The notes under the pieces: generated by a model
What the model was told of the DNA's origin: nothing
The model's database searches: none
Seen by the model: the letters and a program-made list of their open reading frames with translations, nothing else
In this document: positions 1 to 12,619 of the stretch, piece by piece
Position numbering within the stretch: the first letter of the stretch is position 1
Layout of the letters: each line of letters begins with the position of its first letter
Origin: an uncultured Myxococcales bacterium
GTDB taxonomy: Bacteria > Myxococcota > Kuafuiibacteriia > Kuafuiibacteriales > Kuafuiibacteriaceae
Length of the DNA: 64,000 nt
Assembly (NCBI GenBank): GCA_964473255.1
Contig: CAYYOT010000003.1
Location: 50,449 to 114,448, forward strand
Direction of reading: 5' to 3'
Position numbers and translations under genes: made by a program

Positions 1-1172
1 TCCGCCGCCGCTCGAAGCCCGCTGGTGGTGATGGGAACGTCTTCGCGGATCAGTCGCCGAACCACGAGGTCCAAATAGGCGCGGTCGTCGGTCTGATCGC
101 GGATGATCTGATCCAGGCGGGCCAGGACGGCGACGGCGCGAGCGGTGACGGCGCCCCGGCTATCCCCCGTGGCCAGACTCGCGACCTTGTTCCCCCGGCG
201 CCGCAGGTCTCGATGGGTGCGGCGTCGTTCTTCGCCGCTCATACCGCCGCTCCGATACAGGACCTCGATGGCGTAGTACTCGGCCAGGCCTTCGACGATC
301 CAGTCTCCCCCCGGTCCCGACTTTGCTCCCATGAAGACGTGGGCCAGCTCGTGAAGGAGCGGGCTCGTGCCGTCGTCGTCGACCAAGGGGCGGTCGCGGT
401 GGACGAAAAGCGACTCCTGGCCGGAGAGCCCCCCCCGCCACATCGGGTCCCCGGCTCCGACGATGACGATCCGCGGAGGGAGCGCTCCCAAGACCGACTC
501 GAAAGCGGGCAGGGTCCAGCGCAGAAACGACCGGACTTCCATCAAGGCGAGGCCCAGGCGCCGGGTCGTGCAAAGGACGACCTCCGTCGTCGAGATCTCG
601 GCGACCTCGGTTTTCAGGCGCCCGGCCATCATCCATCCCGAGGGTCGAAGAAAGAAGCGACGGTCGTCGCGCAGCACGCGTCGGCCGTTGGTCTCCACCG
701 GGTGGCGGCTCACCAGCTTCCATCGCTTGGGGAGGACGAATCGTGCTTCCCCGGTCGAGGTGCTTCCGCCGACGAAGCGTGACGCGGCTGGGGGCACCAG
801 GTCGGAGCCGCGAAACAGCGCCCAGTTCGTGCCCATCCGGGCGTCGTAGCTCACCGCATCTCGGAGGTGATCGAGTCGGCTCGTCCATCGCAGCCGGCCG
901 CCCTGCGCGGGAACGTTCCAGGTTACGTATTCGTCACCTTCGGTCTCGATGACGCCATCCCCACGAAAGCTCGAATGCTGGTCCGGATCGATGTGAAAAC
1001 GCAGGAGCGAGATGCCGGGCCGGTCCTGCTGCACCCGCAGCTCCACCGTCGCCGCCCGCTCCGCGGTCTTCAGACGCACATCGTAGGCGAAGTGAACAGC
1101 CGTCGCCTCGGTGGTTCCGCTGGGACCGACTACCTGCGCGAGCGCCAGCCAAAGCCAAACCGGCGAACTCAT
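1..1172 (-). CDS. Secreted MA-clan (gluzincin, Peptidase_MA_2-like) HExxH metallopeptidase; the 3' end lies beyond the window start
   Basis: I translated the minus strand by hand from the ATG at 1172..1170 to the window edge and found no stops. The frame is missing from the ORF track because it leaves the window. The N-terminus MSSPVWLWLALAQVVGPSGTTEA looks like a signal peptide. The motif LLHELAHVF...DWIVEGLAEYY is an HExxH plus a downstream Glu about 20 residues later, which is the gluzincin signature. The ATG overlaps the stop of the upstream ATP-grasp gene (ATGA). Confidence 0.65.
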   Translation of the reverse strand, partial: MSSPVWLWLALAQVVGPSGTTEATAVHFAYDVRLKTAERAATVELRVQQDRPGISLLRFHIDPDQHSSFRGDGVIETEGDEYVTWNVPAQGGRLRWTSRLDHLRDAVSYDARMGTNWALFRGSDLVPPAASRFVGGSTSTGEARFVLPKRWKLVSRHPVETNGRRVLRDDRRFFLRPSGWMMAGRLKTEVAEISTTEVVLCTTRRLGLALMEVRSFLRWTLPAFESVLGALPPRIVIVGAGDPMWRGGLSGQESLFVHRDRPLVDDDGTSPLLHELAHVFMGAKSGPGGDWIVEGLAEYYAIEVLYRSGGMSGEERRRTHRDLRRRGNKVASLATGDSRGAVTARAVAVLARLDQIIRDQTDDRAYLDLVVRRLIREDVPITTSGLRAAA

Positions 1173-2113
1173 GAGCCCCACGCCCTCGCGAGTTCCCTCG
1201 ATATTTCGAGACGCTCGGCGACCTCGCGTTTGTCATCGCCCAGCCGGTCGACCGACGCGATCCGCGGGAGGAGCCCGGCCTGATTGCACAGCTGGATGGC
1301 CAGCCCCGGGCGCGCGTTCATTTCCAGGACGACCGGACCCAGTTCGGCGTCGATTACGACGTCGACGCCGAGATAGCCCATCTCCGTCCGATCGGACGCG
1401 GCCACCGCGATCTCGACCGTCCGCTCGAACTCCGGGATGCGCCGTCCCGGCAGGCGGGCACCAGTATCGGGATGATCGGTGATGGTACGATTTCGGACGA
1501 TGGCCGAACGCATGCGACCGGCGGCCAGATCGATGCCGACGCCGACCGCGCCTTGATGAAGGTTGGCTCGTCCGGCCGAAGCGCGCGTGGGCAAGCGGAC
1601 CATGCCCATGATCGGGCAGCCTCGGTACACGATGATGCGAACATCGGGTACGCCTTGGTAGACCACGGGGGCGAGGTCGGGGTGCACCCGCAGCCGCTCC
1701 TCGACCATGGCCATGTCGGCTTGTCCACCCAGGGCGTACAGACCCGAGATGATCCCCGAGGCGTGATACTGGACGTCGCTGCGCGACAATCGCCGACCGC
1801 CGCTTCTTTGATACACGGCGCCCTCGTGGCTCAGGATCACCATGATCCCGTTGCCCATCGCCCCGCGCGCCGGTTTCAGGACGAAATCGTCGAGCTCCTC
1901 CAGGCGGGTCATCAGGGCACCGAGCTCGAAATGGTGCTCGGCTTTTGCGAGCAGGCGCGGGACGGGGATGCCGGCGGCCGAGCACATGGCTTTGGTCTGC
2001 AGCTTGTTGTCGACCAGCGGATAGAGCTTTCGTCGATTCCACTTCGAGGTGAAATCGATGTTGCGCCGATTGATCCCGAGGATGCCCCGTTCGTGCAAGC
2101 GAGCAAAGATCAC
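1169..2113 (-). CDS. RimK-like ATP-grasp amidoligase (alpha-L-glutamate ligase-related protein, TIGR02291 type)
   Basis: This is the C-terminal 314 aa of ORF 1169..2527. The segment ERGILGINRRNIDFTSKWNRRKLYPLVDNKLQTKAM...GIPVP...KPARGAMGNGIMV...DVRIIVYRG...GVDVVID matches the conserved N-terminus and ATP-grasp core of the RimK-related family. No ATG lies near that point. A GTG at 2113 overlaps the stop of the upstream 7TM gene (GTGA), and a TTG at 2098 is an alternative start. The N-terminal 138 aa of the ORF are Arg-rich junk. Confidence 0.8.
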   Translation of the reverse strand: MIFARLHERGILGINRRNIDFTSKWNRRKLYPLVDNKLQTKAMCSAAGIPVPRLLAKAEHHFELGALMTRLEELDDFVLKPARGAMGNGIMVILSHEGAVYQRSGGRRLSRSDVQYHASGIISGLYALGGQADMAMVEERLRVHPDLAPVVYQGVPDVRIIVYRGCPIMGMVRLPTRASAGRANLHQGAVGVGIDLAAGRMRSAIVRNRTITDHPDTGARLPGRRIPEFERTVEIAVAASDRTEMGYLGVDVVIDAELGPVVLEMNARPGLAIQLCNQAGLLPRIASVDRLGDDKREVAERLEISRELARAWGS

Positions 2114-3738
2114 GGCTTGGAGCTCTCCGGCGGTGTCGGCTCGAAGTCTTCCATGGGATGGGTCTCCGTCGTTCCGCCGCGGACGGTCAGCATTCGGAAG
2201 CGAATGAGGTCGGTGACCCGAAAGCCCATGTATCCGCCGATGAATACGAGCAAGCCCATGATGACAAGGACGAGCTCGGGAAAGCCGAACATCACGTGCT
2301 CCGCGCGGGTGCTGCGAAAGAGTGGATAGGAGCAGACCGCGACCACGACCGACACGAGAAAGCGACTCAGAGCCTCGGTGAGCCCTTCCTCCGCCGTGAC
2401 GAGGTGGAAGCGTTCGATCATCATCGTCAAAACGACGATGGGAAAGACCACGCCAGCGAAGAAATCGCGTCGTCCCACGCTGTCGCCCAAGAGGGCGAGA
2501 CCCGCGACGCAGATGATGGTCAAACACAGCAGGAAGCTCACGCGGGGAACGACAAGCAGTCGCAGCCCATCCAAGAAGCGACGGGTCGCTACACCGATCA
2601 CGAGCACCGTACCCAGCATCGACAAGCCGAACACCAGCTGCGTCTCGCGGAGGGCCAAACCGAGCAAAATCGGCATGAAGGTTCCGAACGTGCGGACCCC
2701 GATGAAGTTGCGGAAGATCGAAACGATGATGGCTCCCAGCGGAATCAGAAGAAGGAGACGGAGCGCTTTTTGGGCGGGCAGCGGCAGCCGGTACAGCGAC
2801 AGCGACGCGAACACCACATTCTCGGGGATCATCATGTTCGCCAGCTCTTGGGGTCCGAGCCGCTCTTTCAGCGAGTAGAAGCGAACGTCGACTGCATCGA
2901 CGTTGAACGCCTCGACGATGTCGCCGGGCTCGTAGCGGAGGGCCAACAGGTTGTTGGAGCGCTCACCGAACAGGCGTGCCGACGTGGAAACCGGAATCCA
3001 CTCGCCGGCCAGCCAGACTTCGATCCACTGCACGAGATCAGGCTCCTCGTCCTCGACGAGCTCCAGTCCGCTGACCATTCGCGCCGGAATCCCGACGTTG
3101 CGGAGGAGCGTCGTGAGCAGCTTCGTCCTCCCCAGGCGGCTGCCCTCGCGCTCGACCAAGGTGAGAATGGCGTCGGATGGTCCATTGCGGACTTTGGCGA
3201 TCCGATGGTCGACGAAAGCAAAGACGGTTCGGACTCGTCCCGATGGGTCGTCGGTCGGAGGCAGAGCCAGCCCCTCCACGACGGTTTGCACGCGGGGTGA
3301 CTCGGCGGGAAACTCGGCGGTCGAGGCGAGGTAGCGTTCGGCCACGTCGGGCGGCACCGGGTTCGGCGTGGGCGCAACCGGGAGCTCGTAGGTCGCGCCG
3401 CTCAGGCGGGCCCGGAACGAGTAGATGACGCGGTGAATGCCGTCCAGTTCCCCGGACCACACCCCGAGGCGACCGGGCCCCTCGTTGTCGATGGATAGGT
3501 TGAGACCGTCCGACGACGTCGTTTCGTCGAATACGACTTGGTGGAGGTCGTTGCTGGGGAGCGCCGCCTGGACCGCGCCGGCGCCCGCACCGCGGGCGTT
3601 GATCTGAACCTCCACCTGCCACACGCCCTCGGGGTTGGAGGGGACCAACGGCAGGTTGAGTCCGAAGTACTTGTACGCAAAAAGCCCCCCTCCGACGAGA
3701 ACCAGCGCGCTGCCGACGATGAGCACGGGCCGATTCAT
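2110..3738 (-). CDS. Inactive transglutaminase-like domain fused to 7 transmembrane helices (Transglut_i_TM / 7TM_transglut architecture)
   Basis: ORF 2110..4017, trimmed to Met94 (MNRPVLIVGSALVLVGGGLFAY, a TM anchor). A large extracytoplasmic N-domain is followed by about seven hydrophobic helices in the C-terminal third (LLLLIPLGAIIVSIF, ILLGLALRETQLVFGLSMLGTVLVIGV, FLLCLTIICVAGLALL, FFAGVVFPIVVLTMMI, LVSVVVAVCSYPLF, LVLVIMGLLVFIGGYMGF). This gene class is the known partner of TIGR02291-type ATP-grasp ligases. Its ATG overlaps the stop of the upstream AstE/AspA gene. Confidence 0.7.
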   Translation of the reverse strand: MNRPVLIVGSALVLVGGGLFAYKYFGLNLPLVPSNPEGVWQVEVQINARGAGAGAVQAALPSNDLHQVVFDETTSSDGLNLSIDNEGPGRLGVWSGELDGIHRVIYSFRARLSGATYELPVAPTPNPVPPDVAERYLASTAEFPAESPRVQTVVEGLALPPTDDPSGRVRTVFAFVDHRIAKVRNGPSDAILTLVEREGSRLGRTKLLTTLLRNVGIPARMVSGLELVEDEEPDLVQWIEVWLAGEWIPVSTSARLFGERSNNLLALRYEPGDIVEAFNVDAVDVRFYSLKERLGPQELANMMIPENVVFASLSLYRLPLPAQKALRLLLLIPLGAIIVSIFRNFIGVRTFGTFMPILLGLALRETQLVFGLSMLGTVLVIGVATRRFLDGLRLLVVPRVSFLLCLTIICVAGLALLGDSVGRRDFFAGVVFPIVVLTMMIERFHLVTAEEGLTEALSRFLVSVVVAVCSYPLFRSTRAEHVMFGFPELVLVIMGLLVFIGGYMGFRVTDLIRFRMLTVRGGTTETHPMEDFEPTPPESSKP

Positions 3739-4880
3739 CAGAGCTCTTCGCCTTCCGAGTGTTCGGCTGCCGGGTCGTCGGTTTCGTCGACCGGAATGCT
3801 CTCCGTGGGATCGAAGCCGACGTGATACGCGGGAAAGCCGGGCAGGACGAGCTGTGGTTCGGACAGGCCGATGACCAGACCGCTGCGGGTCGCGACGATT
3901 TCGTAGCTCGTTTCGTCGAACGGTGACTGGACGACGCCGAGGATCTGGCCTTTCTCCACCGAATCGCCGAGCTGCACGCGGTTGGTCAAAATACCGCCGC
4001 GGTCCACTCGGATCCATCGCGACTGCAGGATGACCTCCGGGAGTTCGTCTGGATACGGCGGCAGCGTGAAGCGTCCCGACCTATCGGCCAGCGACGTCGT
4101 GACGTCGTGAACGACCCCTTCGATCACATCGAGCTGAAAGCGCATGGCCTCGCCGGCCTCGTAGGTTACGGCCGCCAGGCCGATCTCGTTCAAGGCTCGG
4201 CGCAGCATTCCGTCGCTTCCGTTCGAATGAACGATCATGGGGGGTGTCATGCGAAACGCGAGCTCCAGCGATGGGAGGTGCTCCGTATCGACCCGCACTT
4301 GCGGGAAGTTCGACCGGCGCGCCGAACCGGTGTGGAAGTCGATCGCTTGGTCGCACCACTGCTCGAGGAACGTGAAAACGCGGTACGCGACCCGAGATGC
4401 CGCGCTGCCCTTTCGTCGCCCGGGAAAATGCCGATTGAGGTCGCGGCGGTCGGGTAGGTCCCTCTCGCCCCGCCGAAACCCGTGGAGATTGACGACCGGA
4501 AGCCCGACGACCATCCCGCTGAGGCGGTCCGGGTCGAGTCGAGCCAAGACCCGGCGGACGGTCTCGATCCCGTTCAGCTCGTCCCCGTGCGTGCCGCCGG
4601 TCAGGCACACCGTGGGACCGGGCTGGTGTCCGCGCACCATCAAGACGGGAATCGCCAGGCGCTGACCCGAATAGGAGGCGCTCGTCACCAGCTCGGCGGC
4701 ACCTCGGGTGCCCGTAGAGAGCTTGGTGCCCTGGATCTTCACCGGGCCCCAGGGCGGTAACAGGGGTTTTTGCGGGCCTCCGGCCGGAGGCTCGGCGACC
4801 GCGCTCTTCTCGGGTCCAGCGGCCGCCAGCGCAACGCCGCCGGACATGAGGACAATCAGGGGGATCACTACGCTCCGCAT
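3738..4880 (-). CDS. Succinylglutamate desuccinylase / aspartoacylase (AstE/AspA) family zinc deacylase with an N-terminal signal peptide
   Basis: The motifs LTGGTHGDELNG ... HFPG ... DFHTG give the Zn-binding His/Glu pattern of the AstE/AspA (M14-like) family. The N-terminus MRSVVIPLIVLMSGGVALAAAGPE is signal-like. This is the first gene of a four-gene minus-strand cassette. Confidence 0.75.
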   Translation of the reverse strand: MRSVVIPLIVLMSGGVALAAAGPEKSAVAEPPAGGPQKPLLPPWGPVKIQGTKLSTGTRGAAELVTSASYSGQRLAIPVLMVRGHQPGPTVCLTGGTHGDELNGIETVRRVLARLDPDRLSGMVVGLPVVNLHGFRRGERDLPDRRDLNRHFPGRRKGSAASRVAYRVFTFLEQWCDQAIDFHTGSARRSNFPQVRVDTEHLPSLELAFRMTPPMIVHSNGSDGMLRRALNEIGLAAVTYEAGEAMRFQLDVIEGVVHDVTTSLADRSGRFTLPPYPDELPEVILQSRWIRVDRGGILTNRVQLGDSVEKGQILGVVQSPFDETSYEIVATRSGLVIGLSEPQLVLPGFPAYHVGFDPTESIPVDETDDPAAEHSEGEEL

Positions 4881-5048: not shown

Positions 5049-5450
5049 ATGACTACCCGAACGCGTCGTTCTGAAAAGGAAAAACCGCTCACCAAGAAGG
5101 AGCTCGAGTACTTCAAGAACAAACTCCTCGGCCTCCAGGAAGAAGTTCGCTCGCGGGTTCGCGACCGGGCGAGCACCGCCCGTATCGATGAGAACGACCT
5201 GATCGAGGAGATGGACCAGGCCAATCGCGCGACCGAGGAAGCTTTCAACATGCGGCTGCTCGACAAGGAAGTGAAGCTCCTCCGCGAGATCGAGGGCGCC
5301 CTCGCGAAGTTCGACGAGGGCACGTACGGGATCTGTGAGGGCACCGAGGAGCCGATCGAACGTCGCCGCCTGGAAGCCCGACCCTGGACTCGGTACTCGG
5401 TCGCTTACAAAGAGCAGCTCGAACGCGAGAAGAAGGGCCGCGCCCGCTAG
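5049..5450 (+). CDS. dksA: DksA/TraR-family transcription factor with an incomplete C4 zinc finger
   Basis: ORF 4770..5450 trimmed to Met94 (MTTRTRRSEKEKPL). A coiled-coil region (LLGLQEEVRSRVRD...) is followed by the DksA C-terminal motif YGICEGTEEPIERRRLEARPWTRYSVAYKEQ. Only one Cys is retained where DksA normally has CxxC...CxxC. Confidence 0.7.
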   Translation: MTTRTRRSEKEKPLTKKELEYFKNKLLGLQEEVRSRVRDRASTARIDENDLIEEMDQANRATEEAFNMRLLDKEVKLLREIEGALAKFDEGTYGICEGTEEPIERRRLEARPWTRYSVAYKEQLEREKKGRAR

Positions 5451-7899: not shown

Positions 7900-7917
7900 G
7901 ACGATGTTTGCTTCGTC
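7900..7917. promoter_or_regulatory. Inverted repeat GACGA-N8-TCGTC in the leader/promoter region of the cpxP-like operon; coordinates approximate
   Basis: The repeat has 5-bp perfect arms. It sits 17-35 nt upstream of the cpxP-like ATG. It is a candidate operator for the downstream OmpR-type regulator. Confidence 0.2.
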
Positions 7918-7948
7918 ATGCACACAGCCTAAGCCCGGACGCCGTATC

Positions 7949-7968
7949 GTTGGACGAAGGCGTCCAAC
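7949..7968 (-). terminator. Stem-loop GTTGGAC-gaaggc-GTCCAAC downstream of the 8005..8646 gene; coordinates approximate
   Basis: A perfect 7-bp stem with a 6-nt loop lies about 37 nt past the stop at 8005. There is no clear U-tract, so it may be an attenuator or insulator hairpin rather than a classical terminator. Confidence 0.3.
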
Positions 7969-8004
7969 CGTTCGTGAAGAACTGTGAAGGTGCGGAGGGT
8001 GGGC

Positions 8005-8646
8005 TCACCCGCCCGCCCTCCGCACGACGGTGGCCAGGTCGGGCCACACTTCGACCCCCGAGGCGTTGAAGCGCGGAGCGTCCGGGGAACGTCCGGTGAG
8101 CCCGACCTGCAGGTCGGGCGGGAGCTTCACGCGCTCGATGCCGCTCACCGCATCCACGACGGGGGCGTCGTCGGTGACGTACGTCACGTCGATGGCGGCG
8201 ATGCGGGCCCGGCGGCCGATGGCGAGCTGAAAGAGGCGGGCGCATACGTGCTCGACGACATCGCCGGATACCTCCGGGCCGAGGAATGCGGCCACGACCT
8301 TCGGACTGACCGAAAGCACGGGCGTCAGACGCCGAGCGCGCTCCCGATGCCAGGCGTCGTTGCGTGTGGCCGCGCCGATCGCATGCGCGTTGGCCGCGAC
8401 CTGGACGAGGTCGGATGTCAGGCGACGCGCCGCCTCGGAGGGGGCGTCGAGCTCGAGCCACCGAGCGAGGGGGGCGCTCGCCGGGCGCCCGTGCTCCCCC
8501 GCTTCGCGCGCCTCGAGAGCCACGCGCTCCAGGAGCGAGGTGCGCGCCTCGAGGTCGCCGGCGGTCGCGGCCGCCCACAGCGGCCACCACGCGGCTCGAA
8601 GGTCGCGCTCCGCCCCCGGGTTCGTGTCCTTCCATCCGTCGGTCAC
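8005..8646 (-). CDS. Hypothetical protein (about 213 aa) with no confidently recognised domain
   Basis: ORF 8005..8778 trimmed to the GTG at 8646 (VTDGWKDTNPG...). It is the only non-junk frame across 8000-8650, and its amino-acid composition is protein-like with conserved-looking blocks (IAAIDVTYVTDDAPVVDAVSGIERV). The competing plus-strand ORF 7984..8673 and minus-strand ORF 7916..9211 are Arg/Gly-rich. Confidence 0.35.
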   Translation of the reverse strand: MTDGWKDTNPGAERDLRAAWWPLWAAATAGDLEARTSLLERVALEAREAGEHGRPASAPLARWLELDAPSEAARRLTSDLVQVAANAHAIGAATRNDAWHRERARRLTPVLSVSPKVVAAFLGPEVSGDVVEHVCARLFQLAIGRRARIAAIDVTYVTDDAPVVDAVSGIERVKLPPDLQVGLTGRSPDAPRFNASGVEVWPDLATVVRRAGG

Positions 8647-8704
8647 ACCCGCAGTATACCTTCGCTCGCTTGACGCCGGACTCCGGCCTCCCGAACGTCC
8701 CGTC

Positions 8705-9664
8705 GTGACCTTCGACGTCTTGGTCTTGATGGACCCGATCGAGCGCATCGACATCCGCGCCGACTCGACCTTCGTCATGCTTGTCGAGGCTCAGGCCCGC
8801 GGGCATCGGATCTACTACGCCCACCCCAAGGACCTTTATCTCCAGGGCGACTCGCCGGGGGTCCGGGCGCGTTCCCTCGAGGTCGAGCCGGTCGAGGGGG
8901 CACACTATCGGCTCGGCGATGCCCGCACGATCGAGCTCTCGGCCTTCGGCGCGATCCTGATGCGCAAAGACCCGCCCTTCGATACCGATTACCTCCTCGC
9001 AACCCTCGTTCTGGACCGCGTCGACCGCCGGCGGGTCGTGCTCTTCAACGACCCTCGGGCGCTTCGCGACCTCAACGAGAAGATGTCGGCGCTGCGCTGG
9101 TCTCATCTCATGCCGCCTACCCTCATCACGGCCGACCATGAGCGCATTCGAGCCTTCATCGGCGAGCACGGCGCGTGCGTGATCAAGCCGCTCCTGGATG
9201 CCGGAGGTCACGGCATTCTACGTCTCGAACGGAACGACAAGAACACGCGCTCGGCGTTGGATCTGCTCACGCACCAGGGCCGAACGATGATCGAGGTCCA
9301 GGCCTACGTGGCGGCCGTCGAGCAGGGCGACAAGCGGATCCTCTTGGTGGACGGCGACGCGGCCGGCGCGATCAACCGAGTGCCTTCGCCTTCCGATCTC
9401 GCCGCGAACATGCACGTTGGCGGGCGGGCCGAAGCCACGGAACTCACCGAACGAGACCAGGAGATATGCCGAACGCTCGGGCCCGAGCTCGAGGCTCTGG
9501 GCCTCATCTTCGTCGGTCTCGATGTGATCGGCGGCTATTTGACCGAGATCAACATCACCAGTCCGACCGGTCTGCAGGAGTACACTCGGTTCACCGGAGT
9601 ACGGGTTGAGAAGTTGATCCTGGACAGCATCGCGCGGCGCCATCGCCAGCTCGGGGACGCCTGA
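8705..9664 (+). CDS. gshB: Glutathione synthetase (prokaryotic ATP-grasp GshB)
   Basis: ORF 8360..9664 trimmed to the GTG at 8705 (VTFDVLVLMDPIERIDIRADSTF...). It aligns along its length with E. coli GshB (MIKLGIVMDPIANINIKKDSSF...ILMRKDPPFDT...DKRILLVDGD...GLIFVGLDVIG..LTEINVTSPT). The upstream 115 aa of the ORF are junk. Confidence 0.85.
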   Translation: MTFDVLVLMDPIERIDIRADSTFVMLVEAQARGHRIYYAHPKDLYLQGDSPGVRARSLEVEPVEGAHYRLGDARTIELSAFGAILMRKDPPFDTDYLLATLVLDRVDRRRVVLFNDPRALRDLNEKMSALRWSHLMPPTLITADHERIRAFIGEHGACVIKPLLDAGGHGILRLERNDKNTRSALDLLTHQGRTMIEVQAYVAAVEQGDKRILLVDGDAAGAINRVPSPSDLAANMHVGGRAEATELTERDQEICRTLGPELEALGLIFVGLDVIGGYLTEINITSPTGLQEYTRFTGVRVEKLILDSIARRHRQLGDA

Positions 9665-10246: not shown

Positions 10247-12619
10247 ATGCGTACTCGGTGGCCGCTCGGTATCGTCATCGTGGTGTCGGCCTGCAACAGT
10301 GGATCGGACGACGACCGACCGAAGATCGACGGCCGAGTGGTCGACGCTACGGACGACCGTCCGATCGCGGGCGCGCGGGTCGCGACCAGCCCCGAAACCG
10401 AGACGGTGCAGACCGCCAGCGACGGAACGTTTGAGATCGTGCGCGGCGTGCGTCCCAACCGGTTGGTCCGCGTGACGGCGCGGGCGGAGGGATTCGACGT
10501 CGAGAGTCAGGATGTGACCCCGAGCGTCGGCGGCGGAACCAACCTCGTCTTTCGTCTAGAGCCGCGCGTGATCTGCGTTCCCGGTTCGCGTCGCTGCGCT
10601 CAGGGCGGCGAAACCGATGGCTTTCAGGTATGCAACGAGCGCGGGAATGCGTACGACCCGGCGATCGCGTGCACGGACACCGAAGTGTGCGTCCCGGAGG
10701 CTCCCGGCTGTTCACCCGCTCGCCGGGTCACGGTGACCAGCGAAGGTGGCCTGGTCTCGTCTTCGCCCTCCGGAATCTCCTGCGCGCCGACTTGTGAGGC
10801 GTCGTTCGTCGACGGGACGTTCCTGAGGCTGACGGCCCAGCCATTCCCTGGGGGGAGCTTCTCCGGGTGGACGGGAGACTGCTCGGTCCAGGGGACGGAG
10901 CCCGTCTGCGACCTTGTCGTCGACCGCGATCTGGCGGTGGGCGCTTCCTTCCTCGAGACCCTGGCCACCGTCGAGGTCGAGTTCACCACCGAAGATGGAG
11001 CGAGTGGCGAGGTTCAACTCGACGGGACTCGGGACGGCGAGGCGCTGTCCGAGACCTGCCGAGACGACTGCGCCATCATTTTCGATCGCGGCACTCCGGT
11101 CGACCTCGCCGCCCGGGCGGACCCGGGTTTCGAGTTCGCGGGGTGGGGTGACGACTGTGAGGGTGAAGGCGACAACGAAAACTGCCGGTTGACTCTGGAC
11201 GGAGCACGAAGGGCCGGGGTGCGCTTCACGCCGGTCCGCTTCCGCCTGACCGCCGACGTGGCCGAAGGGGCGGGCACGATCGCCTCGACGCCGGCGGGGA
11301 TCGACTGTGGCTCGGACTGCGAAGCGGACTTCAACGAAGGCACGACGGTATCTTTGGTGGCGACGCCGGCACCCAGCAATCGGTTCATCGGCTGGTCCGG
11401 GGCGTGTTCGGGAAGCGTCGCCGATGCGTGCACGGTCACCATGGACCGCGACCTGGCGGTGACGGCCCGCTTCGAGGGCGAGTCGTATGATCTTACGGTC
11501 AGCCGCACGGGGGATGGTACCGGTACGGTTACTTCGAGCCCATCGGGCATCGACTGTGGTGGTGATTGCTCCCAGGTCTACGGCGGCGGACAGGCGGTCA
11601 CGCTCACCGCTTCCGCGGCCGCCGGAAACGTCTTTACCGGCTGGGGCGGCGACTGCTCGGCGTCCGGGGCCGACCCGTCGTGCATGCTGGTCATGGATGC
11701 GGCTCGGTCCGTGTCGGCGGCGTTCGACGCGGTTGCTCTCGACGTGACCGTGTCCGTGACCGGTGCGGGGCGAGTGCGGTCGACCCCTCCCGGCATCGAC
11801 TGTCCGGGGTCGTGTACGGCTGGATTCGTCGCCGGCACCTCCTTGACCTTCGAGGCCGCCCCGGACGTCGACCAAGGCGTGTCCGCGTGGACCGGGCCGT
11901 GCGCTTCCGCCGGCCGCGATACGAGCTGCACTTTCGTCGTCGATCGGGCGGCTTCGGTCGACGTCGCCTTCGACGACTTCTTCGTCCTCCCGCTGCGCGC
12001 CGATATGTCGTGCGAAGCCCTCTTTCGCTTCGAGGCAGCAGCGCCGAGGCAGAATAGCTGCGGGGGGGGCGGCAACGCCGTCGAAGTGGGCAGCTGGACC
12101 GCAGCCGTTTCGCGCTCGAGCGCGCTCGGTGACGCATACCGGCCGGGAGCGGAAGGCGATGCGCTGGACACCACCGTGCTGCTCGGCGACGCGGCGCCCT
12201 TCACCTTCGAGCTTTCCGTCCGTCGGACGGGTACCGCCTTCGGTGGCTTCGGCTCGGGCGTTCTGGTCTCGGACCGGGATGCCGCCGACCCGGGAGGGCC
12301 GGGATTCGAGCTGCTCGCCCTCGACGACGGAGCCGTCGAGCTTCAGACCTTCACCAGCAGCGTCACTTTTTCATCGGTACGCACCTCGACCGATACGTTG
12401 GCCGTCGATCGATGGGTCCACCTTACAGTCGTTCGAAGGAGTCAGGACGTCGAGTTGTTCGTGGATGGAGCGTCGGCGGCCAGTCTGGGCAGCGCTCCAA
12501 ACTGGACGGCTTCGTCGAGTACGGCGATCGTAGGAGCTCGACGCGATGGTTCCGGATACCGACAGACCCTGCAGGGTGACGTCGACGAGATTCGCTTCAG
12601 CAGTGTGGCTCGCCGGTAG
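10247..12619 (+). CDS. Large lipoprotein: N-terminal CarboxypepD_reg-like domain, five tandem Cys-pair repeats of about 90 aa, and a C-terminal LamG/concanavalin-like domain
   Basis: The lipobox is MRTRWPLGIVIVVSAC. The segment DGRVVDATDDRPIAGARVATSPETE...DGTFEI is carboxypeptidase-regulatory-like. The repeated unit is S.PSGIDCG.DC...F..GT.V.L.A.P..G..F.GW.G.C, seen at SSPSGISCAPTCEA, STPAGIDCGSDCEA, SSPSGIDCGGDCSQ and STPPGIDCPGSCTA (InlB B-repeat-like). The C-terminal DVDEIRFSS is LamG-like. Confidence 0.75.
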   Translation: MRTRWPLGIVIVVSACNSGSDDDRPKIDGRVVDATDDRPIAGARVATSPETETVQTASDGTFEIVRGVRPNRLVRVTARAEGFDVESQDVTPSVGGGTNLVFRLEPRVICVPGSRRCAQGGETDGFQVCNERGNAYDPAIACTDTEVCVPEAPGCSPARRVTVTSEGGLVSSSPSGISCAPTCEASFVDGTFLRLTAQPFPGGSFSGWTGDCSVQGTEPVCDLVVDRDLAVGASFLETLATVEVEFTTEDGASGEVQLDGTRDGEALSETCRDDCAIIFDRGTPVDLAARADPGFEFAGWGDDCEGEGDNENCRLTLDGARRAGVRFTPVRFRLTADVAEGAGTIASTPAGIDCGSDCEADFNEGTTVSLVATPAPSNRFIGWSGACSGSVADACTVTMDRDLAVTARFEGESYDLTVSRTGDGTGTVTSSPSGIDCGGDCSQVYGGGQAVTLTASAAAGNVFTGWGGDCSASGADPSCMLVMDAARSVSAAFDAVALDVTVSVTGAGRVRSTPPGIDCPGSCTAGFVAGTSLTFEAAPDVDQGVSAWTGPCASAGRDTSCTFVVDRAASVDVAFDDFFVLPLRADMSCEALFRFEAAAPRQNSCGGGGNAVEVGSWTAAVSRSSALGDAYRPGAEGDALDTTVLLGDAAPFTFELSVRRTGTAFGGFGSGVLVSDRDAADPGGPGFELLALDDGAVELQTFTSSVTFSSVRTSTDTLAVDRWVHLTVVRRSQDVELFVDGASAASLGSAPNWTASSSTAIVGARRDGSGYRQTLQGDVDEIRFSSVARR

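Follow-up and report, generated by a model that had tools for sequence, protein, structure and literature searches.

An uncultured bacterium of the Myxococcota carries, as the last gene of an rloBC-like operon, a predicted mono-zinc peptidase with the fold of the M1 and M61 aminopeptidases. The peptidase is predicted to be exported and, somewhat more probably than otherwise, serves to turn over the product of RloBC. Its gene lies at the left edge of the window, by which is meant here the whole 64-kb stretch of DNA that was analysed.

The rlo system, an envelope-stress system, entered the literature only in 2025, as the rloABC operon of Pseudomonas aeruginosa (Lormand et al. 2025, mBio; PMC12239564). 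RloA is a secreted retropepsin that cleaves stretches of at least eight Glu, and a triple rloA mutant is rescued by deletion of rloB or rloC, the loss of the protease being harmful only when RloB and RloC are present (PMC12239564). In P. aeruginosa, the system affects osmotic tolerance, biofilm formation and beta-lactam sensitivity (PMC12239564). The RloB hits reported there lie mostly in Proteobacteria (96%; PMC12239564), whereas the host of the window belongs to the Myxococcota.

Results

The peptidase gene

The first-pass annotation had proposed that the minus strand is open over about 390 codons from an ATG at 1172 to position 1, and translation of positions 1-1172 bears this out: from the ATG at 1172-1170 to base 1 there are 390 codons and no stop. 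The frame is missing from the list of open reading frames because it runs off the window. An identical full-length protein of 412 aa (P0001, E 1.7e-257) confirms a real gene truncated by the edge and places its last 22 codons beyond it; an in-frame stop just outside the window, which would have made the product much shorter, does not occur, and the full product is 22 residues longer. Upstream of the ATG, an in-frame stop is met at 20 codons, and the sole alternative start in between is a GTG three codons upstream. More than 2037 homologues scored at E ≤ 1e-3, a profile of the family matches 1558 clusters at 50% identity, and the family extends over at least 582 species-level genomes. Given the identical protein, the homologues and the clusters, the frame is therefore not a chance open frame of high-GC DNA.

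Table 1. Positions in the window of the four operon genes and of the main features of the peptidase
Feature	Positions	Strand	Remarks
Zinc peptidase gene, M1/M61-like gluzincin fold	1..1172	-	Codons 1-390 of 412 inside the window
N-terminal export-like segment, residues 1-23, MSSPVWLWLALAQVVGPSGTTEA	1104..1172	-	Short hydrophobic core, no Lys/Arg
Loop G241-D-P-M-W-R-G-G248 at the position of M1 GxMEN	429..452	-	No Glu in the loop
H274-E275-L-A-H278	339..353	-	Two predicted zinc ligands and catalytic base; invariant 34/34; helix 271-281; codons 353-339
E294-G-L-A-E298 on helix 290-307	279..293	-	E294 (codon 293-291), predicted third zinc ligand; E298 (codon 281-279), one helical turn later
RloC-like cytoplasmic ATP-grasp ligase	1169..2113	-	314 aa from GTG 2113; TIGR02291, PF14397
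RloB-like inner-membrane protein	2110..3738	-	542 aa from ATG 3738; PF14400, PF01841 and PF14402 all match
AstE/AspA-family (M14-like) zinc hydrolase, exported	3738..4880	-	380 aa; first gene of the cassette; PF24827 E 3.9e-37

The operon

The four genes form a translationally coupled operon, in which an AstE/AspA-like hydrolase, an RloB-like protein, an RloC-like protein and the peptidase follow one another with overlaps of TGATG, GTGA and ATGA at the junctions. At the last junction, TCATGA at 1174-1169 contains the ATP-grasp stop (TGA, 1171-1169) in a 4-base overlap with the peptidase ATG. This overlap had been noticed earlier, as had the terminal place of the peptidase, which is also the last conserved gene in relatives; none of the genes downstream of it is conserved. 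What had gone unrecognised is that the cassette is a Myxococcota version of the rloBC-type operon. Neighbourhoods that combine an ATP-grasp protein with a 7TM-transglutaminase protein were reportedly first described by Iyer et al. 2009, in work on amidoligases.

The RloC-like ligase scores 354.7 bits against TIGR02291 (cut-off 314.2) and matches PF14397 at E 7e-75. Its GTG start is joined by the GTGA overlap to the upstream stop, and its homologues are 316-324 aa long; the 452-aa ATP-grasp frame of the mechanical list is over-extended. The RloB-like protein, whose gene shares TGATG with the upstream stop, consists of an N-terminal transmembrane helix, an inactive transglutaminase domain and a seven-helix membrane domain. 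Its alignment to the NCBIfam RloB model covers positions 12-505 of 508 with an E of 6.6e-55, and its score of 187 bits is below the exception-level cut-off, which is 900. In its transglutaminase domain, Arg and Gln stand, as judged by eye, where the catalytic Cys and His would be expected. The N-terminus of the AstE-like protein, MRSVVIPLIVLMSGGVALAAAG, resembles a classical signal peptide; the protein has the H-G-D-E metal motif and a weak match to the murein tripeptide amidase MpaA (E 1.7e-4). Pfam detected no PF05618 retropepsin among the cassette genes, and a retropepsin profile built from five locus-derived sequences had no match in the six-frame translation of the 64-kb window at E ≤ 1. 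Directly upstream of the cassette lies a CpxP/CpxR/CpxA-like envelope-stress module, as it does in the related locus L003.

Fold and family

The peptidase has the two-domain M1/M61 aminopeptidase fold, with an N-terminal beta-sandwich followed by a thermolysin-like catalytic domain. Its best structural matches are all aminopeptidases, of M1 or M61, and the match to solved M61 structures spans both domains. The HExxH on a helix, a predicted ligand Glu on the next helix and the thermolysin-like fold are those of the gluzincins, clan MA(E). The earlier assignment to the gluzincins thus stands, but not that to the Peptidase_MA_2 type, because PF13485 gave no match at E ≤ 10 in any of 34 family members and the architecture is the full two-domain one of M1/M61, not a minimal, lone MA domain. 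The consensus of PF13485 presumably combines HExxH with an E-G-L-A-E-Y-like motif, both of which it has in common with the peptidase.

PF01433 (M1) likewise had no match at E ≤ 10 in any of the 34 members. Among Pfam models, Peptidase_M61 alone recurs, below threshold in 24 of the 34 (best E 2.2e-4), with M61_N matches in three. P0001 scores 12.7-12.8 bits against the Pfam M61 models (PF05299 / PF17899), below the cut-off of 22. Scanned against Pfam and NCBIfam, the 390-aa fragment had no match at E ≤ 0.01, and when the Pfam search was relaxed, M61 alone appeared, at E 0.16; NCBIfam has no match to the peptidase, and PDB chain sequences, searched by sequence and by profile, yielded only noise (E ≥ 0.44). 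The family is covered by neither Pfam nor NCBIfam.

Compared with structures of M61, the glycyl aminopeptidase family (4fgm of Idiomarina loihiensis, 8j9c and 8j9d of Xanthomonas campestris, 7xyo of Myxococcus fulvus), the peptidase shows just 13-15% identity, and all scores of P0001 lie under the Pfam gathering cut-off. It is also shorter (412 aa against 520-605), has neither a PDZ domain nor a C-terminal extension, and is set apart by a family-specific GDPMWRGGLSG loop and by its location in an rloBC operon. The M1 relatives compared were ERAP1, IRAP, tricorn factor F3, LTA4H and the two-domain M1 of Deinococcus radiodurans (6a8z), from which the peptidase differs by the absence of an ERAP1_C domain and at several positions of the active site.

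Active site

In an alignment of 34 family members (38-65% identity), H274, E275, H278, E294 and E298 are invariant, and HExxH, E294 and E298 are kept also in the more distant P0188. E275, E294 and E298 are the sole Glu among 93 conserved columns. When this alignment was compared with one of M1 proteins (hhalign, E 7.2e-5, 140 columns), HELAH paired with HEFGH and DWIVEGLAEY with AWLDEGFDTY, which sets E294 against the zinc-ligand Glu of the M1 motif W-L-D-E-G-F. The spacing is HExxH-x15-E in the peptidase and HExxH-x18-E in M1, and hhalign places a 3-residue gap there. With a single M1 sequence as the target, hhalign and hmmsearch of the family alignment reached the C-terminal motif only and not the active site. 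From the profile-profile alignment, E294 is predicted to be homologous to the Glu that binds zinc in M1 enzymes, and E298 is probably a second-shell residue. The HExxH-(19)-E motif read earlier is therefore present, with an invariant Glu (E298) at x19, but the ligand Glu indicated by hhalign is E294, at x15.

About 25-35 residues before HExxH, where M1 enzymes have the GxMEN exopeptidase motif, that motif is absent from the family alignment and G-D-P-M-W-R-G-G is found. D242, P243 and W245-G248 of this loop are invariant, and G241 and M244 are conserved in at least 90% of the sequences. Strand 234-240 precedes the loop, and HExxH comes 30 residues after it; from this spacing and secondary structure, and by eye against the GMEYP of a Pfam-confirmed M1 protein, we infer that it is equivalent to GxMEN. 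Farther on, in a low-confidence stretch of the hhalign alignment, T343 stands opposite the Tyr of the M1 alignment's NSY motif, an invariant residue which we take to be the M1 catalytic Tyr. The lack of GxMEN, together with this low-confidence Thr, suggests that the chemistry of the peptidase may differ from that of canonical aminopeptidases.

The same two departures from M1 would suit a protein that has kept the zincin fold for a non-catalytic or regulatory task, for example as a periplasmic partner that binds the inactive transglutaminase domain of RloB, and one dead domain, that of RloB, is already present in the cassette. Pseudoenzymes, however, normally lose active-site residues. Here these residues are invariant down to 38% identity and in P0188, and the three conserved Glu are exactly the predicted active-site ones, so that a non-catalytic role appears very improbable.

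Export and charge

The first-pass annotation had assigned a signal peptide to the peptidase. An export-like segment is indeed present at the N-terminus, but as a signal peptide it is atypical, being about 12-16 residues long and without a basic n-region. In the AF2 model, pLDDT is about 52 over this segment and the folded domain begins at residue 25. Of 164 full-length sequences of the family, 96% have a hydrophobic 9-mer at the N-terminus, while an internal stretch used as a control gave 0.6%; Lys or Arg precedes it in 84% of members and is missing in the closest subclade of the window protein. It is mainly this family-wide hydrophobic segment that points to export of the window peptidase, which would thus be periplasmic.

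The family is basic, with a median net charge of +7, a median pI of about 9.4-9.45 and 73% of members above pI 8. For 120 M1 proteins, found by a search with a Myxococcota M1 protein, the corresponding values are -12, 5.8 and less than 1%.

Related loci

The order RloB-RloC-peptidase occurs in 41 of the 84 loci examined, which are all the loci with RloB/RloC. Among these 41, 30 include an AstE-like gene, and it lies upstream of RloB in every case except L039; three loci (L001-L003) have the cassette order of the window at 45-51% identity. Linkage to RloBC follows the peptidase tree, requiring 2 parsimony steps where 500 shuffles needed 13.2 on average and never fewer than 9. The other 43 loci, chiefly from Gammaproteobacteria, Planctomycetota, Verrucomicrobia and Nitrospirales, have no RloB/RloC match, which shows that the family's link with RloBC is not an obligate one. 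Many of them include 7 kb of upstream sequence with no conserved neighbour, while certain contigs end too early for a judgement; no neighbour is common to more than five of the 43. In one, L059, an AstE-like gene adjoins the peptidase, which connects the two kinds of peptidase independently of RloBC, as does P0121, where an M14 carboxypeptidase domain and the peptidase share a called protein.

That the family stands alone in about half of the loci, and that its top structural matches are all aminopeptidases, would also agree with a general-purpose exported aminopeptidase scavenging nutrient peptides, whose position beside rloBC is a convenience of co-expression. We consider this unlikely, given the single gene order in all RloB/RloC loci, the few steps on the tree and the 4-base start/stop overlap in the window. 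The amino-terminus anchor GxMEN is, moreover, replaced by a different conserved loop, and by the standard of M1 proteins the family is unusually basic.

In two loci, L014 and L017, a retropepsin (PF05618, confirmed by Pfam in L014) without a visible signal peptide takes the usual place of the AstE-like gene, alongside the peptidase. Because both enzymes occur there together, the peptidase is not a one-for-one replacement of RloA, and a simple model in which the zincin replaces RloA was rejected. Two called proteins join the peptidase to another domain, an M14 carboxypeptidase in P0121 and an aminotransferase in P0188; they are probably merged gene calls and not true fusions, as an internal hydrophobic segment is retained in the former and an internal signal peptide in the latter.

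Discussion

The cassette resembles the rlo operon of P. aeruginosa in that RloB-type and RloC-type genes are adjacent and co-oriented, with exported peptidases in the same operon. It differs in having an AstE/AspA-like hydrolase upstream and an M1/M61-like gluzincin downstream, and not RloA. We propose that RloC would build an amide-linked product, possibly Glu-rich, and that RloB, its inactive transglutaminase domain lying in the periplasm, would expose this product at the periplasmic face. Both exported zinc hydrolases may then trim or degrade it, as RloA does in P. aeruginosa. In the peptidase, by homology, H274, H278 and E294 would hold the zinc and E275 would activate water. The function of the peptidase would depend on RloBC.

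The basic character of the family, seen against the acidic M1 set, is the reason for proposing an anionic substrate. A poly-alpha-glutamate-like substrate is a tentative suggestion, with the balance still somewhat against it. More doubtful again is the wider idea that, outside Gammaproteobacteria, the AstE-like hydrolase, an enzyme of carboxypeptidase type, and the basic gluzincin without GxMEN serve RloBC as a dedicated periplasmic pair, having come convergently to the role of RloA.

Alternatively, the peptidase and the AstE/MpaA-like hydrolase might remodel or recycle peptidoglycan stem peptides, RloBC being a sensor or regulator and not the maker of the substrate. The weak MpaA match of the AstE-like protein and the CpxP/CpxR/CpxA-like module that precedes the cassette both here and in L003 would fit such a role. 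Pseudomonas rlo mutants also have defects in cell shape, beta-lactam sensitivity and hypo-osmotic growth, for which peptidoglycan was raised by the authors (PMC12239564). This explanation nevertheless seems improbable: it accounts neither for the invariable co-encoding of a cytoplasmic ATP-grasp ligase nor for the suppression of protease loss by rloC deletion (PMC12239564), and no resemblance of the peptidase to any known family of peptidoglycan endopeptidases was found, its top fold matches all being M1/M61.

Turnover of an RloBC product remains our preferred reading. Our results place an RloB-RloC core in another phylum, where two exported zinc hydrolases accompany it in place of the aspartic protease, and thereby provide independent comparative evidence for the idea that the product of the cytoplasmic ligase needs cleavage in the periplasm. 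The C-terminal residue released by AstE/AspA enzymes is Glu or Asp. This specificity and the strongly basic peptidase family narrow the likely chemistry. A sizeable gluzincin family, at present outside Pfam and NCBIfam, is also newly defined. If the wider idea of a convergent pair is true, this would be the first gluzincin specialised for a non-ribosomal, ATP-grasp-made, poly-alpha-glutamate-like product of the envelope, and its strict operon linkage would offer an independent handle on the identity of the RloC product.

The peptidase gene and its predicted fold

The peptidase gene is real and conserved. As the first-pass annotation had described, the minus-strand frame is open from the ATG at 1172 to the window edge. 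It comprises 390 sense codons, begins with MSSPVWLWLALAQVVG, and is identical to P0001, a 412-aa protein in the public collection (E 1.7e-257), so only the final 22 residues fall outside the window, with no early stop just beyond its edge. P0001 and its homologues, which number more than 2037 at E<=1e-3, rule out a chance high-GC ORF; almost all of the homologues are unnamed or 'hypothetical', and most come from metagenome-assembled genomes of Myxococcota. An in-frame stop occurs 20 codons upstream of the ATG, and the sole other candidate start is a GTG three codons upstream. The frame is absent from the mechanical ORF list because it runs off the window.

This family falls outside the curated libraries. 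No Pfam or NCBIfam model matched the peptidase at E<=0.01; at E<=10 the sole match was Peptidase_M61, whose 12.8 bits fall short of the cut-off of 22, and PDB sequence and profile searches returned only noise. Scanned one by one, 24 of 34 family members gave weak M61 matches (best E 2.2e-4) and three matched M61_N. None matched PF13485 or PF01433, and the Peptidase_MA_2 label proposed earlier is thus not supported. The AlphaFold2 model, built on alignment A1 of the homologues, is confident (pLDDT 92.6, pTM 0.88), and Foldseek matched it to the M61 structure 7xyo (E 7e-20) and to 4fgm (TM 0.72). Together, the fold matches and the weak M61 scores point to a clan MA(E) gluzincin with a predicted two-domain M1/M61 architecture.

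At its core the earlier assignment, 'secreted gluzincin', is right: the fold and the intact HExxH are those of a gluzincin, and export is likely, with an atypical signal peptide. By a Kyte-Doolittle heuristic (9-mer score >=2.0 in the first 45 residues), a hydrophobic N-terminal 9-mer was present in 96% of 164 full-length members vs 0.6% for an internal control stretch, and Lys or Arg preceded the hydrophobic segment in 84% of them. In the window's peptidase and the members nearest to it (P0001-P0014) the hydrophobic core is short and a basic residue is usually missing, and the N-terminal segment of the window's peptidase contains no lipobox Cys.

Features of the window, of the peptidase model (residues counted from Met1) and of loci of peptidase relatives
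Feature	Location	Strand	Remarks
AstE/AspA-like zinc hydrolase	4880-3738	minus	PF24827 E 3.9e-37; clear signal peptide MRSVVIPLIVLMSGGVALAAAG; H-G-D-E metal motif
RloB-like protein, 542 aa	3738-2110	minus	PF14400, PF01841, PF14402; NCBIfam RloB E 6.6e-55
RloC-like ATP-grasp ligase, 314 aa	2113-1169	minus	TIGR02291 354.7 bits, cut-off 314.2
Peptidase	1172-1	minus	Frame, P0001, A1, fold matches
DksA-like gene	5049-5450	plus	PF21157, PF01258; divergent from cassette
EnvZ/CpxA-like histidine kinase	6727-5447	minus	Cpx-like module
OmpR-family response regulator	7434-6724	minus	Cpx-like module
CpxP/Spy-like LTXXQ protein	7925-7431	minus	Cpx-like module
Glutathione synthetase	8360-9664	plus	GSH-S_N + GSH-S_ATP, E 7e-62
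790-aa protein	10247-12619	plus	CarboxypepD_reg-like; three divergent InlB B-repeats (Flg_new_2); Laminin_G_3/ConA-like domain
Peptidase model, disordered part	residues 1-20
Peptidase model, beta-rich domain	residues 25-202
Peptidase model, mixed catalytic domain	after residue 202		HExxH on helix 271-281; E294/E298 on helix 290-307
Peptidase model, helical part	C-terminal end
PF05618 retropepsin	L014 304-795		Directly upstream of RloB; PF05618 confirmed; no visible signal peptide
RimB/RloA-type retropepsin	L017 1148-1657		Directly upstream of RloB; no visible signal peptide
RimB/RloA-type retropepsin	L037 5927-6355		Near cassette; PF05618 confirmed; no evident signal peptide
RimB/RloA-type retropepsin	L039 2718-3170		Near cassette; no evident signal peptide
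RimB/RloA-type retropepsin	L052 1086-1805		Near cassette; no evident signal peptide

The active site

Across the 34 homologues of A1 (38-65% identity), H274, E275, H278, D290, W291, E294, G295, A297, E298 and Y300 are invariant, and the loop G241-D-P-M-W-R-G-G-L-S-G251 is also conserved; that the protein is a non-catalytic partner is very improbable. Aligned by hhalign with A2, an M1 alignment seeded with an M1 protein that locus L003 encodes and Pfam confirms (E 7.2e-5, 140 columns), HELAH of the family pairs with HEFGH of M1, DWIVEGLAEY, with three residues gapped in the query, lies opposite AWLDEGFDTY, and the C-terminal motif PITTSGLRAAAEEVSGRSLETFF is common to both. By this pairing E294 corresponds to the zinc-ligand Glu of M1, and the predicted motif is HExxH-x15-E. 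The Glu at +19 favoured previously is E298, one helical turn after E294, and its role as ligand is not supported by the alignment. In thermolysin, the E166-x3-D170 pattern offers D170 as a model for a second-shell residue, and by analogy E298 is probably one. Glu occurs in just three of 93 conserved columns, at E275, E294 and E298.

The GxMEN exopeptidase motif of M1 is absent from the family when A1 is compared by eye with M1. Its place, as we judge by eye, is taken by G-D-P-M-W-R-G-G, which follows strand 234-240 and precedes HExxH by 30 residues. T343 lies opposite the Tyr of NSY, which is invariant in A2 and presumably the M1 catalytic Tyr, in a low-confidence stretch of the alignment. With GxMEN lacking and Thr at this position, the enzyme may be either an amino- or an endopeptidase; a general scavenging aminopeptidase seems unlikely.

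The cassette and its conservation

The four genes of the cassette all overlap, the junctions being TGATG, GTGA and ATGA in gene order, which suggests translational coupling. The last of these was correctly described before: the peptidase ATG (1172-1170) overlaps the ATP-grasp TGA (1171-1169) within TCATGA. The listed ORFs for the ATP-grasp protein (452 aa, 1169-2527 minus) and the RloB-like protein (635 aa, 2110-4017 minus) are over-extended; judged by model coordinates, by how long the homologues are and by the overlaps at the junctions, the genes start at GTG 2113 and ATG 3738. In the RloB-like protein the catalytic Cys and His positions read as Arg and Gln. The RloC-like ligase is a relative of RimK-type alpha-L-glutamate ligases.

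Operon linkage of the peptidase to RloB and RloC, usually with an exported AstE-like hydrolase, is tight and clade-wide. Loci L001, L002 and L003 keep the four-gene order at 45-51% peptidase identity, with otherwise different flanks. When each GTDB species was represented by a single genome, at least 582 genomes contained a peptidase relative, and of 84 loci examined by tblastn with the window's proteins, 41 carry RloB-RloC-peptidase, 30 of these also with an AstE-like gene, upstream of RloB except in L039, where it is downstream of the peptidase. Nothing downstream is conserved across loci, so the peptidase is the last cassette gene, as had been claimed. The other 43 loci gave no RloB or RloC match within the locus sequence and share no conserved neighbour, many with 7 kb of upstream sequence; they include Gammaproteobacteria (Halioglobus and Thioalkalicoccus among them), Planctomycetota, Verrucomicrobia and Nitrospirales. 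RloBC linkage requires two parsimony steps on a neighbour-joining tree built from 56 peptidases, vs a mean of 13.2 for shuffled labels (never below 9); linked and unlinked peptidases thus form distinct clades, and the window's falls within the linked one. Stand-alone loci are L034, L036, L040-L045, L047-L050, L053-L058, L061-L065, L067-L082 and L084; this clade also occurs in Woeseia and Chromatiales (Gammaproteobacteria), with no conserved neighbours at the loci.

At L014 and L017 a retropepsin occupies the slot held elsewhere by the AstE-like gene, so by position the retropepsin may correspond to the AstE-like enzyme and not to the gluzincin. Without RloBC, an AstE-like gene adjoins the peptidase in L059 (3357-5787), and in the 996-aa called protein P0121, possibly a merged gene call, the gluzincin comes after an M14 carboxypeptidase domain.

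Directly upstream of the cassette lies a Cpx-like envelope-stress module (7925-5447 minus), and L003 is arranged alike. The VxrAB two-component system reportedly controls the rlo operon of Vibrio cholerae (PMC12239564). The zinc-finger region of the DksA-like gene, as read, retains one of four canonical cysteines (GICEGTEEPI...RYSVAY), and L003 has a DksA-like gene at the equivalent place. A 431-aa minus-strand ORF (7916-9211) that overlaps the glutathione synthetase is probably a high-GC shadow ORF, with no family match; the 790-aa protein is probably a secreted surface protein.

A proposed role in the rlo system

AstE/AspA-family enzymes hydrolyse amides at C-terminal Glu or Asp. The peptidase family is basic (median net charge +7, median pI 9.45), the M1 comparison set (n=120, found by a Myxococcota M1 query) having medians of -12 and 5.8, and Arg occupies 10 of 93 conserved positions. 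The RimK-type RloC, the AstE/AspA chemistry, the basic family and its ten conserved Arg hint at an acidic, Glu-rich substrate; a poly-alpha-glutamate-like one is a possibility, at less than even odds.

The rloABC genes were named in P. aeruginosa by Lormand et al. 2025 (PMC12239564). RloA, a secreted retropepsin whose channel is positively charged, cuts runs of at least eight Glu in vitro; a triple rloA mutant does not grow in hypo-osmotic medium and shows biofilm, beta-lactam and cell-shape defects, and these are suppressed by deletion of rloB or rloC (PMC12239564). According to the authors, 96% of RloB hits are in Proteobacteria (PMC12239564). The literature searched contains no description of a zinc-peptidase version of this operon. 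We propose that cytoplasmic RloC would form an amide-linked product, that RloB would display it at the periplasmic face, and that two exported zinc hydrolases, the AstE-like enzyme and the peptidase, would process it in the role of RloA. Hydrolysis of peptidoglycan peptides is a doubtful alternative; the peptidase is rather likely to act in the periplasm on the RloBC product. It stands for a gluzincin family, M1/M61-like and so far unclassified, that is embedded in an rlo operon of metallopeptidase type.
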